Assembly (NCBI GenBank): GCA_043822305.1
Contig: JBDRBU010000033.1
Coordinates: 1-6,337 of the forward strand
DNA from: Candidatus Firestoneibacteriota bacterium
GTDB taxonomy: Bacteria; Oederibacteriota; D2-FULL-39-29; JBDRBU01
Direction: 5' to 3'
Length of the DNA stretch: 6,337 bases
In this document: in pieces, positions 1-6,000 of the stretch
How the letters are laid out: each line of letters begins with the position of its first letter
Numbering within the stretch: position 1 is the first letter of the stretch
Program-made: the position numbers

Positions 1-3000
1 AGTTTATAAACTACTTTTGTCAAGATTTATTTCTTAATAATATTTTGCTTTTCTATTTATATTCCTTTTCAAATATTATTTAAAGAATGATTACTTAAGC
101 ACCATTTGATCAATCTTCTATAGTATCTACCAGGAGGTAAATATGACCTCGAACTACTCATATAAAGGACTACTTCAAACCCTCGATTCCTATACCCCCC
201 AAATCCATCCCTCAATCCGAAATATAGCCTACCAACCTAAATTATATTCCTGAGAATCAAAATTTTCGCCTTTCATATTTTCCCCCTCAAAATAAACATT
301 TTTATCACTTATAAATAAAAAATATTTTAAAAATATTATTTTAACTTTGAAAAAAATAAACAAACATTTTTACAAAATTATTTTTCCTACAACAAAATAA
401 TTTTTTTCTAATAAGATTCAAAAAAAAATTAAAAATATTTTATAGAATTTTTTAGATTATAAAATTTTTGTTTTAAACCAAATCAAAAGTAAAACCTTAT
501 TTTCCCTTGCTTTCTATTCCCTTATTTATATAATTCCTTTTATGAATATTAAAAAATCTGATACAGTAAATCCCGAACTCTCTTCCAAATTTCATAGCTT
601 GTTATTACAAAGCTGGAGACCAACCCTAAAAGAAATCCAAAAACAAAAAGCAATACCAATTGATGTTCGATTACGTAGAGAAGGAATTTATTATTATGAA
701 GAAATAATTCATCTCCAGCCAAAAGAATGGTTAATTAAAGAATTTGGTCCAGGACAAGATTATCCGGTCAATATCAGTAGACTTATGAAAAATATTATCT
801 GGCAAATCCGGACCAGGATTATTCAAAAACAACAACCACCTGTAAAAGGACTTATCCGATCCTTCTGGTATGCATACATCAAACCTGTCCTATCAAGAAC
901 AAATTCCCTAAACCAGAAGGTTGATCAATATCCACAAATGATTCAAATGTTTGCCAGGCTGGTCCAATATTTAGATCTTATGCGTTATAAAGATATCGGA
1001 TTCACAGACGATAATCAAAGCGATAGAAAAATAGGAATAAATAATCACATAATTTTATTTGCAGAAAAAGCCGGACATTATCCATTACTCCAGCAAATTG
1101 CAGAAAATTCCGAAGTAACTATTATCTCTTTAGGTGGACAACCTTCAATCCTTAGTGCAGAATATTTTGTTGATAAAATGAAAGCCCAGGGAATAGATAT
1201 CCGAAAATCATTTTATACCTTTAGCTTAGTAGATTATGATCCCAGTGGCTGGATTATAAAAAATGCATTCTTAAATGACCTCAATTTCTTCGGATTAAAA
1301 CATATAAAGCGTACAGATCTTATCCTATTGAAAATGTTCAGTAAAGAGGAAATAGAATCCAGTAAATACCTTGTTCCTGATCCTAAAGAAATGAAGATAA
1401 AAAACAGAAACTGGCTCAAAGAATCAGGAGGAATAAACGGTGAACTCTATGGACTTGAAGCTGATGCTGCCCCTTTAGAAAGAATAGAACAATTGTTTAA
1501 TTCATATATTCAGAATTTAATTGAATCAACGGAAGATATCAGAAAAGGAAGAGCTCTCTTTTCTGTAGCCCAATCCTTAGACGAATATGTTTTAGCCAGA
1601 TTAAGAACACAGGAGAAATAATATGTCAAATAATTCAGTATCTGTTACAAAACCATTTACACTTAATACATTCATGAAACAAACAACAAAACTTAAAATA
1701 ACCGCTGATGTGCTTGATGATTTTATAAAAGCCTTAGATGAATTAGTTATAAAAATAACTCAAACCTCTGAAGCCTTAGCAATAAAAGAAGATAGAAAAA
1801 CAATAATGCCTCAGGATTTAGAAAAAGCATTAAAAGAAACTTTAGAAAAAGGCCCCCTTACCGTAGATGAACTTACAAAAAAAATAGAACCATTAAGTAT
1901 AATTGAATTAACAGACTTGTCAGAGAAAATAAAGAAAATGGCAGAGGATCTTCTAAAACCAAAACAAGCAAAAAGAAAGAAATAAATCCAATTTGAATTT
2001 CTTATCTTATCCCCCTCTTATCTAAGAGGGGATAGGGGAGTTATATAGCATAGATGAACCACAAAGAATTAACCAAAAAAATATCTTTAAAATTTCATCT
2101 CCGACTTTATTTTTCAGAGCAACTCCTAAACCAAATCTATACCGAAATAACCCAAGAACTACTTAGAAAAAAAAGAGTCTATCTAAGAGCGCTTGGCACT
2201 TTTAATTCCCTTCACCGCCCCGCCAGACGATATTATGATCCAAAAACAAAAAAATTCAAAACCAGACCCGCTTACGATGATGTGATCTTCCGCCCAGCAA
2301 AACAACTTCTAAATAAATTTAGAATACATTTATAATATTTTATCTTGACAAAATATGTAATTACATTATAATTACAGTAGAGGTGATGATATTATGAAAG
2401 CAAATATAATTCCTATAGGAAATTCAAGAGGAATCAGAATACCAAAAACATTATTTGAACAATGCCATATTGGGAAAATAGTAGAATTAGAAATTAAAGG
2501 GAAAAATATTGTTATTAAACCTATCAAACAAAAGCCAAGAAAAAATTGGGATGAAGCTTTTCTAAAAATGCATGAAAATAAAGATGATCAACTTATTATT
2601 GATGATAACATTGATTTAGATACGGAGGATTGGGAATGGAAATAAATCAATATGATGTTTTTTTGGTTGGATTGGATCCTACTATTGGACATGAAATAAA
2701 AAAATCCCGCCCTTGTATTATAATTTCACCAAATGAGATAAATAAAAATATTTCAACAGTAATCATTGCACCTATGACAACAAAATCACATTCATATCCC
2801 ACAAGAGTTCCTATTAAATTTAAAGGAAAAGATGGTTGGATTTTATTAGATCAAATACGAACAATAGATAAAAGAAGATTAATTAAACAACTAGGGAAAA
2901 TAGAACATAATACTATCACCCAAATAAAGTCTGTTATAAAAGAAATGTTAGTAGATTAATATATTCAAAAGAATAGTTAGTATAAACTTTAGTTGAAATA

Positions 3001-6000
3001 TTATTATATACTCTAAGGATTTAGAATGAAATATATCCTTATAATATTTTTAGTGTTTATTTCTGTAATTGTTACTGTTTCTGCAGATGATCCAACAGTT
3101 GTTGCAGGATTTGTTCTTGGTCCTGGTATTTCATATATGAACGGGAATAATACAGGATACGGTTTCGATATTCATTGCCAATTGATTATGTTTTCTGGTT
3201 CAATTGAATACTATAAATGGAATAAACAAGAAATAGTGAGAACTTATATGGGATTAGGTTTAGTTCAATTACTTCAATTTCAATTTGGATTTGGATATGG
3301 TGATACTCCATTTAGAATAAGATCTAACATTAATATAGTAGATTTATTTAGGAAGCGAGAAAATAATGCTCATCGCTTTCTTTATCCATCTGCAGGTGAA
3401 CAATGGGGAGGTTTTCCTAGATTATTCCCAATATTATCTTTAATGATAGATTTTGGAAAAACTCGTAGATATGGAGCAAGTCTTGGTATATTATTTTAAA
3501 ATAGTAATTATTATCAATTTTTATTCTTTGTAGGTTTAACTCTACAAATTATAAAGAAAACTAAGAATTTAGAAAACCAATCTCCGCCCGCTACCATCCG
3601 CCTCATCCTCTGCCTGTTTCCTTTTATCTATTTTGTTTCATATCTCTTATTTCCCCCTTACCCATATTTTATCCTCTTCACTTCTCACGGCAGCCATTCG
3701 GCGTATGACAGCGAGCTGGGCGATGCACGTGAGACTCCCTCTTCGGCATCTCTAAACATCTATTAAATTATTATCACTGTCTCGGACAAGACATAATCTC
3801 CACCCGCCAATCAGTAATCCGCAACAGTTTCCTACAATGTCCCGTGCCCTCCATTCAGTCGTTCCGTTTCGACAACTTATCACCACTTGCCATTTTATGG
3901 CAATTGGTTCGTGCTTGATGATAAAGGCAAGAAGCCTTTAACATCATTTTTCTTTTTGTGGGCTGCCTCAAAAAGAAAATCCGCACTGATAAATTGTCTC
4001 CACTACACTCCTATTTTTATTGATAGTTTTCTTTGTCTCGGTTGCGGATTACTGACCCCGCCCTACCACCCCTAAAGGTGTGAGCTTGTTTATATTATTT
4101 ATTTTAAGATGAAAAAGCTGCAAAGGAGAAATCACCCCCGACTAAATAAGTCGGGGTCGGGAGATGTCCGATAAGACCGGTCTTATCCGACATCCCCCTT
4201 GATTTCTCCCTTGCGACGTCAGAAAAACCAGCTTATCCTCGCCAAGAGACTCCGTCTCGCCAATGAGGTTTCACCTCGGCAGGAGACTCCGTCTCGGCAG
4301 AGTGATAAGCTGGTTTTTCTGATAAACATAAAAGTTTTTATGTTTACTTTTTCAAGAAAAAATAAATAATATAAACAAGCTCACTTACCTCCCACCCACC
4401 ACCCTTCAAGGGGTTCGCTCCAAATAGGAGCTCACAATCTTACTATGCATATAATTATCAAATCATCTCATCACCCCCTTTTACGCTTCGCAGTAGCTCC
4501 GCTTTTCGCCAGAGCCAAAGGCTCTGTCGTGAAAATCAAAAATGAAACTCTTGTCAGGACATAATTAGATTCAGGAGATAATACCATTACTCGACAATAA
4601 ATATGCTATTAAAACAAAACTGTAACCACATTTTTCCCTGCATCTTTCTCTAAATCACATACTTTCCCAAAATTATAGTTATTTTTTTCATTGACAAAAT
4701 TAACTAATTTATATAGAATATCATCATAATCAGCAATTATATGATGACTTTGATTTATTTGATGAATAAATTTATAATCTGGAGGAATTAAAATGAATCC
4801 ATTTACCCCCGGTCATACTGTTGATCCTCAGTTTTTTGCCGGCCGCAAAAAAGAAATAGAAAAATTTAAGATGTTTTTAAAAAATACCTGCCAGGGTAAT
4901 CCCATGAATATGGCTATCCTCGGTGAACGAGGTATAGGCAAATCTTCACTCTTGAGGACGTGTGAAAATCTTGCGAGGTCAGAACGATGTATTGTAGTGC
5001 GGGTGGACTTGGACGCAGCTATATCGACAATTAACGATCTGGTGATAACCATATTGCAAGAAATAAAACAAGAAGGCGGGGCTTATTCTAAGATCTTTAA
5101 GGCATCCGAAAAAGCAAAAAGATTTTTCGATACTTATAATATCTCTGCTGGGATTATGGGCGTTTCTTTAAGCCTGGATAGGCATAAACAGACTTTTTCT
5201 CATGAGGCGCGTTTAGAACTAAAGAAGGTTTGGAGGATAGTAAAAGAATACGTTCCGGCGATTGTAATTATGTTAGACGAAGCGGAACAACTTGAATATA
5301 TAGAAGGCTGCCTTCAATTCCTTAGAAATACTTTTTCTCGGATAACAGAAGAAAAAATGAACTTCATGTTGCTTTTATCAGGGAAGTTGAGCCTATTCCG
5401 TAAAATAAAAGAAATTCATTCACCTTTAGCCAGATTTTTTAATCCCGTCAGCCTATCTGAGTTGAATTCCGAGGAGAGCATTGAGGCTATCGAGAAACCC
5501 TTATCTTCTTCAAATTTTAAATTTACAGATGAAGTCAAAAACAAGATTGTTGAAGTAAGCCAAGGCCATCCTTATATCATACAACTTTTTGGATTCTATC
5601 TTTGCGAAAAGGCCACCTCTCAAATAATAAACGGGAATACCTATGAGGCATCCTTCCCCATGATTATGGACAGTCTATCAAAACAGCTCTTTGAAGATTA
5701 CTATCACTCCTCCAGTCCTCTGGAACAGAAGATACTAAGAGCTATTGCTGAAGAAAAGGAATCCGTCCTGGACTTCTCTTTAATAGTCAAAAAGGTCACA
5801 CAACCCCCTAATAAGGTATCCTATTTACTTAATCGTCTCTGCGAAAAGGATTGCCTAAAAAAGGTCTCCCGCGGTCATTACAGGCTTTTTCATAATTTGT
5901 TTAGGGAGTATTTGCGAGGTGAGGCGGATGCATAGCCAGAAATAATTAAGCGTCTCCTTCATGAAGTGTCAGCGATAATTTATTGAAACTTACATAGGCA

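Follow-up and report, generated by a model that had tools for sequence, protein, structure and literature searches.

The conserved motif at 3866–4003, described in the first-pass annotation as a self-contained element of 138 nt, is one optional module, here termed M1, of a modular structured non-coding region of 0.6–1.3 kb, which also holds a paralogous module (M2) and closing helices. The results support a new conserved structured element without an Rfam family, located beside the published IHF-histone gene trio. Asymmetries in substitutions and loops favor the minus strand, which is antisense to the trio, as the functional strand, and the region leans toward being more DNA-like than RNA-like. 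The window analyzed here is an entire contig of 6,337 nt. The following features were assigned, where the minus strand of structured elements is the favored one.

542–1621, plus strand: TopoVI-A/Spo11-like protein with 5Y-CAP and Toprim fold, without a B subunit (AF2 model, Foldseek, invariant residues)
1623–1985, plus strand: histone-fold protein, "IHF histone" (CBFD_NFYB_HMF, 1.7e-6)
2054–2335, plus strand: HU/IHF-like DNA-binding protein (Bac_DNA_binding, 2.6e-14, residues 1–88)
2394–2959, plus strand: mazE/mazF-type toxin-antitoxin pair (MazE_antitoxin, 4.1e-6; PemK_toxin, 6.1e-32)
3545–3810, no strand assigned: C-rich flank, not significantly structured (fold z −1.7)
3811–4055, minus strand: domain D2, closing helix P0 (3811–3825 with 4041–4055) around M1 (15-nt perfect inverted repeat)
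3858–4012, minus strand: module M1 (reported motif; core 3866–4003), two three-way junctions, one nested in the other, carrying three hairpins (R1 match, 151.2 bits)
4080–4384, minus strand: domain D3, 38-nt closing arms (4080–4117 with 4347–4384) and three hairpin units, two C(GGA)G mini-hairpins among them (inverted arms and fold)
4385–4790, no strand assigned: C-rich flank, then AT-rich promoter region of the following gene (fold z −1.55)
4793–5935, plus strand: STAND/AAA NTPase (nSTAND1, 5.2e-10; AAA_16, 5.9e-10)

The three ORFs of the trio (542–1621, 1623–1985, and 2054–2335) were found where the first-pass annotation had placed them, and its histone match was reproduced with the same value. 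The product of 542–1621 had neither a Pfam match nor a PDB match by sequence profile. With its AF2 model (pLDDT 90.5), the top Foldseek hits were Topo VI-A structures (9o8p_A, 2zbk_A, 9o0g_A, and 1d3y_B; E 2e-5 to 1e-4), and Spo11 8urq_A was retrieved at E 1e-2. Residues R106, Y110, Y149, E175, D231, and D233 were unchanged across 28 homologues, in agreement with the Topo VI-A/Spo11-like identity proposed earlier. Compared by fold and residues, the protein resembles the type IIB topoisomerase A-like Mini-A (Takahashi et al. 2020, PMC7671362): both have the 5Y-CAP and Toprim fold, lack a B subunit, occur on mobile elements, and share an Arg and an aromatic residue ahead of the catalytic Tyr as well as E...DxD. 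However, Mini-A is reported from viruses and comprises ~300 aa, whereas the proteins described here comprise 340–360 aa, are encoded on plasmids, and had no match in viral contigs. A histone or IHF partner is mentioned 0 times in the Mini-A paper. The family of the 1623–1985 gene is described in section 10 of Schwab et al. 2024 (PMC11390915), where a histone-fold gene, one for an IHF-like protein, and one for a topoisomerase VI-like protein make up the IHF-related histone operon in Omnitrophota, Elusimicrobiota, and others; the window has the same combination of genes. In the available sections of that paper the histones are termed "exotic", with 19 homologues, and plasmids carrying this histone family and a non-coding element are not mentioned, whereas here 308 relatives were confirmed out of 597 pattern matches in metagenome contigs, together with six closed plasmids.

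The M1 core had a folding energy of −52.1 kcal/mol (z −7.6 versus shuffles), and the z-scores of the two strands were −7.6 and −7.4. Covariation was counted on 17 sequences, 16 of them distinct, that had been aligned with MAFFT without fitting to any model. Pairs were formed in 98.6% of 510 cells, compared with 39–46% once the partners were slid, and double changes occurred in 16 of 32 pairs, a level reached by 0 of 500 shuffles. The earlier description of a structured, conserved motif with compensatory changes, which span independent metagenomes, thus holds on an alignment free of model fitting. R1, a covariance model built here, gave matches to the motif in 26 sources out of 126, namely the window and 25 loci (E 1e-16 to 5e-44). 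Recurrence beside the trio was borne out, with more hits than the 10 originally given. All R1 matches had the same orientation as the TopoVI-A-like gene, and the position and orientation of M1 relative to the trio are fixed. In five MAGs carrying R1 matches, each of the 7 matches fell within a trio locus or at a contig end that aligns with the same region; the five loci reported from a single Omnitrophota MAG were also recovered. R1 matched 1 of 99 genomes in the phylum of the window, namely the window's own, and 1 of 151 genomes in the phylum of G099, namely G099 itself; M1 is present in one copy in G000. M1 does not accompany the trio throughout: it is seen in 23 of 72 trio loci having at least 700 nt beyond the IHF-like gene. 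Its absence from Rfam was confirmed: the window at E ≤ 1 gave nothing but NsiR4 at 25.8 bits, and six relatives gave nothing but a 29.9-bit NrrF match.

In most relatives the structured region begins directly past the IHF-like gene; in the window contig only, the mazE/mazF-type pair separates it from the trio. The structured part of the window spans 3811–4384. The G+C content of the region is 0.43 compared with ~0.30 in the contig, and the 3800–4400 fold reached a z-score of −18 for the minus strand and of −24 for the plus strand. In the circular relative L098, conservation extends ~1.3 kb from the IHF stop codon. Besides M1, the region holds domain-closing helices, more hairpin domains, and M2, a diverged tandem paralogue of M1 with the same architecture and double changes in 22 of 51 pairs (11 sequences). 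L086, L087, and L066 are without M1 and M2 and retain D1a, D3, and D4, and L110 contains M2 in the absence of M1. The closing helices hold variable content (215–436 nt for P0, 131–354 nt for the D3 stem). In 12 relatives P0 consists of 10–12 nt of other sequence with 286–436 nt enclosed, and between the window and L088 it shows a compensatory difference at two paired positions. D3, present in one copy in G000, agrees in size and position with D3 of L088 (2649–2953, closing stem 20 nt); because the window D3 has sequence similarity to no locus, we infer this equivalence. A conserved direct-repeat block to the right of the domains has the appearance of duplex binding sites. A TTGACA-17-TAGAAT site was located at 4691–4719 on the plus strand. 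The segment 4685–4790 resembles 703–817 of the circular plasmid L046, upstream of its STAND gene (820–1959), which belongs to the same nSTAND1/AAA_16 families and has the same position as the 4793–5935 gene of the window.

The proposed plasmid context was confirmed by six relatives that are closed circles of 7.6–14 kb, encoding ParA, a small tyrosine recombinase, and an initiator from any of three families (RepA_C, RPA, TrfA). One of them, L098 (7,615 nt), has identical 50-nt ends and codes for ParA, for RepA_C, and for a tyrosine recombinase of 204 aa; the hairpin region makes up ~17% of this plasmid. Iterons adjoin the rep genes of L098, L087, and L046 (three of three scanned), so the hairpin region is not the oriV. 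No HUH Rep, relaxase, or primase was found in Pfam scans of ORFs from the six circles plus two other loci. The neighbors of the hairpin region in L098 and L087 are all minus-strand genes that read into it, which makes transcription through the region plausible.

The plus-strand hits of the first-pass annotation merely reflect the strand on which its model was built. The MFE of M1 was lower for the minus strand in 19 of 19 sequences (mean −64.4 versus −56.3 kcal/mol). For mismatch counts, each sequence was folded with Watson-Crick pairs only, and single mismatches flanked by Watson-Crick pairs were scored. The ratio of plus-strand A.C (equal to minus-strand G.U) to plus-strand G.U was 8:0 in M1, 2:0 in D2, 8:0 in D3–D4, and 0:1 in D1, in total 18 versus 1 distinct sequence contexts, which are not independent events and of which one was counted in both sets. 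Over ten representative regions the ratio was 14:1, compared with ~1:1 expected from base composition. A looser alignment-wide count of pairs that RNAalifold predicts on both strands was balanced, with 24 positions for plus-strand G.U and 27 for A.C. The plus strand is G-poor (GC skew ~ −0.3), and the minus strand is the sense strand for most other plasmid genes.

The first-pass annotation had held that RNA and single-stranded DNA could not be told apart. The question is not wholly undecidable, as loop and pair statistics lean toward ssDNA. The helices are Watson-Crick almost throughout, with five A.C-type cells (minus-strand G.U) among the 510 M1 consensus-pair cells. On the minus strand, 21 of 39 triloops were G-N-A, 16 of them with C-G closure, compared with 1 on the plus strand; GNRA accounted for just 2 of 31 tetraloops, and no UNCG loops were found on the minus strand. 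In homologous loops G and A are constant and N is A, C, or U. As a control, the 16S and 23S rRNAs of the window's genome were processed with the same pipeline and gave GNA in 0 of 7 triloops and GNRA in 8 of 16 tetraloops; G.U made up 15.4% of MFE pairs in rRNA versus 6.8% in the region. Among the minus-strand hairpins are some with the exact cores GCGAAGC and CCGAAGG. In the window itself the loops are poorer in GNA, with just two hairpin-context C(GGA)G, both in D3. G.T tolerance and GNA loops are compatible with RNA as well.

Several known single-strand signals share some of these properties. According to the parts of PMC13037366 available, C(GNA)G mini-hairpins have a far higher stability in DNA than in RNA, are bound poorly by SSB, and occur in the G4 complementary-strand origin, RSF1010 ssiA (CCGAAGG), and the N4 ssDNA (virion-RNAP) promoters; the minus-strand triloops of the region are alike. 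There is no sequence homology to these primase-type ssi signals, however, a plasmid primase was not found among the ORFs scanned, and the window copy has few GNA loops. M1 has three hairpins in ~140 nt, a size like that of the G4 origin. The sso elements of rolling-circle plasmids and ICEs (ICEBs1 sso1, pBAA1/pTA1060 type) work in one orientation and only when folded as a single strand. They comprise three stem-loops within a few hundred nucleotides, structure counts above sequence, redundancy is possible, and their site can be immediately downstream of the nickase gene (PMC4595007, in the sections available). M1 resembles them in its strand bias and three hairpins, in evolving by compensatory changes, in having a paralogue, and in its fixed position after the trio. 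In contrast, M1 carriers have iteron-type initiators and no detected HUH Rep or relaxase, there is no sequence relation, and the present region is larger and multi-domain.

We tentatively favor a cis element that acts as minus-strand ssDNA in the manner of sso/ssi priming signals and is tied to the trio cassette. Several observations speak against it. No ssDNA-generating enzyme was found in the six circles and two loci, and theta plasmids with iteron-type initiators expose little ssDNA. Known sso/ssi elements span ~140–340 nt, and a region of 0.6–1.3 kb in which helices close over long distances and junctions are nested looks closer to a large RNA. The strand call was not unanimous (24 versus 27), and M1 is visible in a minority of loci, with fewer GNA loops in the window. 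The main rival, which we consider rather unlikely, is a large modular ncRNA of ~0.6–1.3 kb transcribed from the minus strand, with M1 and M2 as domains, possibly a scaffold or partner of the trio proteins or a plasmid-maintenance RNA. Large ornate ncRNAs such as GOLLD, ROOL, OLE, and HEARO are likewise multi-domain, covarying, and found on mobile elements. Closing helices around inserts that vary, three-way junctions nested in one another, conserved nucleotides in junctions and flanks, a raised G+C content typical for structured RNAs of AT-rich genomes, the minus-side substitution asymmetry, the genes reading into the region, and its large share of L098 all fit such an RNA. However, the loops differ from those of RNA in the same pipeline, G.U pairs are scarce, and no Rfam model matched on either strand, including those of the four named families. 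Consensus promoters or terminators flanking the region were not found; because the right-hand gene of the window has plus orientation, a separate promoter would be required for a minus-strand RNA there, but none was seen.

The remaining readings are less probable. Palindromic sites or cruciforms in duplex DNA, REP/BIME-like, could bind the IHF-like and histone proteins and be substrates that the TopoVI-A-like protein cuts or relaxes. The adjoining genes for DNA-bending and topoisomerase-like proteins, the good folding of both strands, and the direct repeats would suit this improbable reading, and E. coli BIMEs, which are bound by IHF and gyrase, offer a parallel. Cruciforms require both hairpins, so A.C and G.T should be equally frequent, but they are not; GNA loops are one-sided, local extrusion cannot form helices closing 131–436 nt, and the single copy per genome differs from REPs. 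A 3′ UTR or processed ncRNA of the trio operon on the plus strand, the default of the first-pass annotation, appears very improbable. The region is always found downstream of the trio and in the same orientation, mostly from the IHF stop codon on and with no canonical terminator in between, but its helix mismatches are A.C and hardly ever G.U, the plus-strand MFE was higher throughout, its loops would be UNC triloops, which are not known to be stable, and the strand is poor in G. A non-autonomous MITE-like element, an assembly artefact, or chance has hardly any probability: the 38-nt terminal inverted repeats of D3 and the presence or absence of modules could be read this way, but single copies of M1 and D3, constant placement and orientation to the trio, compensatory changes in independent metagenomes, and covariation unmatched by shuffling argue against it.

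Under the favored ssDNA priming model, the hairpin region would function as a single strand, the minus strand, most likely as ssDNA, and would belong, together with the trio, to one cassette that travels on small theta-type plasmids whose initiator family varies. When exposed as lagging-strand template or displaced strand, it may fold into SSB-resistant mini-hairpins and three-hairpin junctions, on which the trio proteins might act directly. These folds could serve as orientation-specific start signals for complementary-strand synthesis, like sso/ssi, or as another ssDNA-protein recognition site, with M1 and M2 as exchangeable and partly redundant cassettes.

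The structured motif (M1, 3858-4012, core 3866-4003) lies in a non-coding stretch in which G+C rises to 0.44, compared with about 0.27-0.33 in the surroundings. Every sizeable gene of the window, which is the entire contig C33, is carried on the plus strand, and the ends of the contig do not overlap. The following features were assigned.

542-1621, plus strand: TopoVI-A-like protein, 359 aa, no Pfam match
1623-1985, plus strand: histone-fold protein (CBFD_NFYB_HMF, 1.7e-6)
2054-2335, plus strand: HU/IHF-like ORF (Bac_DNA_binding, 2.6e-14)
2394-2959, plus strand: mazEF pair, between the trio formed by the three preceding genes and the hairpin region
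3026-3499, plus strand: 157-aa ORF without family and with a signal-peptide-like start, also between trio and hairpin region
3500-4790: non-coding stretch, C-rich on the plus strand
3811-3825 with 4041-4055: helix P0, enclosing 215 nt with M1 alone
4080-4384: module D3, with 38-nt arms, in size and place as D3 of relatives
4793-5935, plus strand: STAND NTPase

The mazEF pair and the 157-aa ORF intervene in the window; in most relatives the hairpin region directly follows the IHF-like gene. An AT-rich 42-nt tandem repeat (2.1 copies, 77% matches) is found at 313-400, upstream of the TopoVI-A-like gene. The host genome (G000) comprises 2.15 Mb in 125 contigs. Its 23S rRNA gene (C39:6811-10190, locus L136) spans 3,380 nt versus 2,925 model positions, and likely contains an insertion (intervening sequence or intron).

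The reality of the motif was confirmed. The core folds at -52.1 kcal/mol (z -7.6) and its complement at -55.1 kcal/mol (z -7.4). Related loci were gathered via an alignment of the TopoVI-A-like protein; 45 came from genomes and 80 from metagenomes, the latter out of 308 confirmed relatives. A blastn search with 3500-4792 matched 3842-4012 in 22 loci, invariably on the strand of the TopoVI-A-like gene. From a MAFFT alignment of 17 sequences, unfitted to any model, RNAalifold derived a structure of 32 pairs with double changes in 16 of them. Paired cells made up 98.6% of 510, compared with 39-46% when the partners were slid, and the covariation was reached by 0 of 500 shuffles. The covariance model R1, built from this alignment, matched 26 of the 126 sources with a TopoVI-A-like gene (E 1e-16 to 5e-44), among them three distant copies outside its seed (L022, L024 and L107, 72-85 bits). 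That the motif belongs to no Rfam family was upheld in searches of both strands against Rfam 15. At E<=1, the window gave only an NsiR4 match of 25.8 bits (gathering threshold 40) outside M1, and six relatives gave only NrrF at 29.9 bits (threshold 60). The weak NsiR4 match lies at 1977-2034, between the histone and IHF-like genes, and was taken as chance.

The motif is rare and specific to the trio context. Within the window's phylum, only its own genome out of 99 had an R1 match; in a sample of 151 genomes from the phylum of another R1-bearing genome, G099, only G099 itself did. Five R1-bearing MAGs held 7 matches, of which 5 lie in trio loci; the other 2 sit at contig ends alignable to the same region in the relatives L046, L076 and L031. 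The earlier placement of the motif beside the trio held with regard to strand, which is that of the TopoVI-A-like gene in the matched loci, but not as a constant association. Of the 72 sources in which an IHF-like gene is followed by 700 nt or more, 23 contain an R1 match and 49 do not, which makes the motif an optional partner of the trio. One Omnitrophota MAG holds five loci (L087, L097, L099, L104 and L114) and two further M1 copies at contig ends; the shared region is thus apparently a place where assemblies are interrupted. Datasets listed as containing parts of 3500-4790 included no RNA and 15 DNA sets, with a best share of words of 0.27.

M1 is a module of a larger structured region, termed the hairpin region. 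The first-pass annotation had described a stand-alone 138-nt motif; this was superseded by a second module (M2, a diverged tandem paralogue), by the closing helices (P0 and the D3 stem), and by conservation that, in the circular locus L098, continues for about 1.3 kb past the IHF stop codon. Weak full-length second matches to R1 (20-32 bits) were seen in 7 loci about 40 nt downstream of the first. Eleven M2 copies, aligned separately, displayed an M1-like architecture of an outer helix, one hairpin and an inner helix with two hairpins, with double changes in 22 of 51 pairs. Relative to the reference locus L088, the modules are D1a, D1b, M1, M2, a C-rich linker, D3 and D4, and their presence varies among relatives. 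L086, L087 and L066 have D1a, D3 and D4 without D1b, M1 and M2; L098, L078, L004 and L079 lack M2; L110 has M2 without M1. In 12 relatives P0 encloses 286 nt (M1, no complete M2) or 415-436 nt (M1 and M2), and two of its paired positions are compensatory between the window and L088. P0 is absent from L098, L078 and L079, and in L096 just 119 nt follow M1, too short to judge. A D3 closing stem of 15-20 nt encloses 131-354 nt in six loci. Since 4080-4384 of the window has no sequence relative among the gathered loci, it was named D3 by position only.

For the fold of 3800-4400, the minus strand scored z -18 and the plus strand z -24. The flanks 3545-3812 (z -1.7) and 4385-4600 (z -1.55) were not significant and were discarded as structured domains. 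D1 was considered as a coding region and rejected: L098 contains a 133-aa minus-strand ORF without family there, and a 4-nt difference in loop length between relatives would break the frame. The ORF-free length after the IHF-like gene was not used as a measure because spurious ORFs occur in G+C-rich DNA. Promoter and terminator scans returned about as many sites as expected from shuffles and revealed no conserved boundary. Identity of M1 was 79.5% between the window and L095 and 68.9% between the window and L004, compared with 46% and 79% for the TopoVI-A-like protein. Similarity of M1 thus does not track that of the protein, and modules seem to have been exchanged. In six loci without an R1 match (L121, L119, L122, L093, L110 and L086), the 600 nt after the IHF-like gene are G+C-rich and strongly folding, and the motif CGNAG is commoner there on the minus strand (e.g. 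9:2, 6:1 and 5:0); the hairpin region may be more widely spread than M1. A conserved block to the right of the hairpin domains (L098, about 150-430; aligned in L087, L046, L076, L004, L079, L042 and L029) carries a TCGTCGG-type direct repeat in three copies as well as an 11-nt tandem repeat (L098, 390-411). This block resembles duplex protein-binding sites, possibly with a role in partition or recombination.

The plus-strand assignment was not sustained. A covariance model recovers the strand it was built on, and the 'plus-strand hits' reported for the motif are thus uninformative on function. In all 19 distinct M1 sequences, the minimum free energy was lower on the minus strand (mean -64.4 versus -56.3 kcal/mol). 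For a strand-neutral test, structures were folded with Watson-Crick pairs only, and single mismatches flanked by Watson-Crick pairs were counted as distinct sequence contexts. The ratio of plus-strand A.C (minus-strand G.U) to plus-strand G.U was 8:0 in M1, 2:0 in D2 (P0 plus M1), 8:0 in D3-D4 and 0:1 in D1, and 14:1 over ten representative regions; from base composition, about equal numbers are expected. Among 116 distinct hairpins, 39 have triloops, which read G-N-A in 21 cases on the minus strand and in 1 on the plus strand. Within 600 nt after the IHF-like gene, most M1-bearing loci contain 5-14 CGNAG on the minus strand and 0-1 on the plus strand, and the window's non-coding stretch contains 6 and 1. 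RNAalifold consensus energies were lower on the minus strand for D2 (-113.6 versus -98.1) and D3-D4 (-125.4 versus -107.5) but did not favor it for D1 (-118.5 against -116.7). One looser count, restricted to pairs shared by the RNAalifold predictions for the two strands of long MAFFT alignments, was balanced (24 versus 27 positions); this result stands, and was weighted less because such alignments contain many non-pair cells. The union of RNAalifold-predicted pairs was rejected as a strand test, being circular by design. Owing to this circularity and to the balanced shared-pair count, we relied on the Watson-Crick-only folds. Taken with the energy and triloop asymmetries, they make the minus strand probably the functional one.

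Loop and pair statistics bear on the nature of the folded strand. The helices of M1 are nearly pure Watson-Crick, with 5 A.C and 1 G.U cells of 510 at the 32 consensus pairs. The minus strand carries 16 C(GNA)G triloops; in homologous triloops G and A are fixed and N is A, C or U, and exact GCGAAGC and CCGAAGG cores are present in the hairpin region. Of its minus-strand tetraloops, 2 of 31 are GNRA and none is UNCG. The same pipeline applied to the 23S and 16S rRNAs of G000 returned GNA triloops in 0 of 7 and GNRA tetraloops in 8 of 16. G.U pairs amount to 6.8% in the hairpin region versus 15.4% in these rRNAs. In the part of a 2026 review that deals with them (PMC13037366), GCGNAGC-type mini-hairpins are reported to melt at 76.5 C as DNA, compared with 39 C for the RNA form of a sister sequence, and to be bound poorly by SSB. 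The same part places mini-hairpins at the phage G4 complementary-strand origin, at RSF1010 ssiA (CCGAAGG) and at the single-stranded promoters of phage N4. The first-pass annotation had held that RNA and single-stranded DNA cannot be told apart; the statistics now lean to ssDNA, and G.T tolerance and GNA loops are compatible with RNA too.

The co-directional trio next to the region was corroborated by Pfam matches of the histone-fold and IHF-like products and by a Topo VI-A fold match in Foldseek. It has the histone-fold, IHF-like and TopoVI-like genes of the 'IHF-related histone' operon already published by Schwab et al. (2024), who, in the sections of PMC11390915 concerned, called bacterial IHF histones 'exotic' and left them unplaced. 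A histone was detected in 108 and an IHF-like gene in 99 of the 126 sources. A single 27.5-kb contig of one MAG carries two TopoVI-A-like genes (L090 and L101). A sequence profile of 28 TopoVI-A-like homologues matched nothing in the PDB. The AF2 model (pLDDT 90.5, pTM 0.83) retrieved Topo VI-A first (9o8p_A, 2zbk_A, 9o0g_A and 1d3y_B; E 2e-5 to 1e-4, TM about 0.4), followed at lower rank by Spo11 and JetD. Residues R106, F108, Y110, Y149, E175, D231 and D233 are invariant in the 28 homologues and agree with the Arg/aromatic/Tyr and E...DxD pattern of type IIB A subunits and Mini-A (passages of PMC7671362). The model accordingly predicts a type IIB A/Mini-A-like fold, 5Y-CAP plus Toprim, with the catalytic Tyr and the E...DxD site. 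Pfam detected no Bergerat-fold B subunit in the window, nor among the ORFs scanned from six circular relatives, and a scan of viral_contigs held no relative of the protein.

The proposed plasmid context was strengthened by these six relatives, which are closed circles of 7.6-14.2 kb. L015, L087, L098 and L111 have exact terminal overlaps, and L046 and L076 overlap by 171 nt at 99.4% and 126 nt at 100%. The circles encode ParA, a tyrosine recombinase of roughly 200 aa, toxin-antitoxin pairs and restriction-modification genes. The initiator is of the RepA_C family in L098, L087 and L111 (also in L103), RPA in L015 and TrfA in L046 and L076. Perfect or near-perfect 21-22-bp direct repeats adjoin rep in L098 (2916-2958), L087 (4500-4541) and L046 (6119-6226); these iterons likely mark oriV, away from the hairpin region, and the latter was for this reason dismissed as an iteron origin. 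All genes except the trio are on the minus strand in L098 and L087, and in L046, as in the window, a STAND NTPase directly follows the hairpin region. Pfam recognized no HUH Rep, relaxase or primase in 61 ORFs of four circles and 38 further ORFs, several of them without family; the same scans yielded RepA_C, RPA, TrfA, ParA and tyrosine recombinases. Among the curated plasmids of PLSDB, neither the L088 region nor the TopoVI-A-like protein had a match.

The hairpin region is best explained as a cis region of the trio cassette that acts as a single strand, namely the minus strand. Its likeliest active form is ssDNA, in the manner of single-strand origins (sso) or priming signals (ssi), a reading we rate at somewhat under even chances. 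M1 has three hairpins within 138-155 nt, in keeping with the several stem-loops in about 140-340 nt of such signals; structure is kept through sequence change, and selection on one strand only is indicated, with the looser count balanced at 27 versus 24. The sso1 of ICEBs1 is likewise orientation-specific, with three stem-loops, structure over sequence and possible redundancy, and it can sit directly after a nickase gene (PMC4595007, in part). Against ssDNA, no ssDNA-making enzyme was recognized in the scanned ORFs, the replicons are iteron-type, and the size of the region and its long-range helices suit a large RNA better. A minus-strand RNA is the main rival and appears less likely in view of the loops and pairs. 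A plus-strand RNA would agree with the direction of the trio but not with the strand asymmetries, and is improbable.

A duplex element is scarcely more probable, as cruciforms need both hairpins and the mismatch and loop bias is one-sided. An artefact or MITE is the least credible explanation. Both 3800-4060 and 4080-4384 are single copies in G000, by which the window's D3 was rejected as a MITE, and REP/BIME-type repeats were rejected on the same grounds together with the two single-genome R1 counts. A broader proposal, which we consider unlikely, unites trio and hairpin array in a single self-contained module for DNA transactions, which would both produce and use ssDNA. The B-less TopoVI-A/Spo11-like protein would be its site-specific nicking or cleaving enzyme and would form a 5'-phosphotyrosyl link, as relaxases and rolling-circle Reps do. 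Its architectural partners, bending DNA into the active complex, would be the histone-fold and IHF-like proteins, and M1 and M2 would act as folded minus-strand signals for recognition and priming of the displaced strand.

In the portions covered of the literature on IHF histones with topoisomerase VI, on Mini-A, and on Omnitrophota plasmids and noncoding RNA, neither the hairpin region nor the trio's location on plasmids was found to be described. Term look-ups in two groundwater-plasmid papers (PMC12023590 and the preprint 10.64898/2026.05.20.726742) gave no histone, topoisomerase or hairpin. IHF histones are now placed on small plasmids with interchangeable replication backbones, which explains their patchy spread across phyla, and they become testable on a 7.6-kb circle. 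The trio gains a candidate cis partner, an adjoining strand-specific non-coding region of DNA-type mini-hairpins that, judged by M1 in the window and L095, is better conserved than the proteins. As an RNA, the region would represent a new class of large structured RNAs. As ssDNA, it would extend the known range of priming or recognition signals to theta-type plasmids of uncultured phyla, with a hint at the role of a B-less Spo11/TopoVI-A-like enzyme. Should the trio and hairpins indeed form one module, plasmids would have a new, non-HUH way of transferring themselves or of replicating by strand displacement, and a role would for the first time be assigned to bacterial 'IHF histones'.
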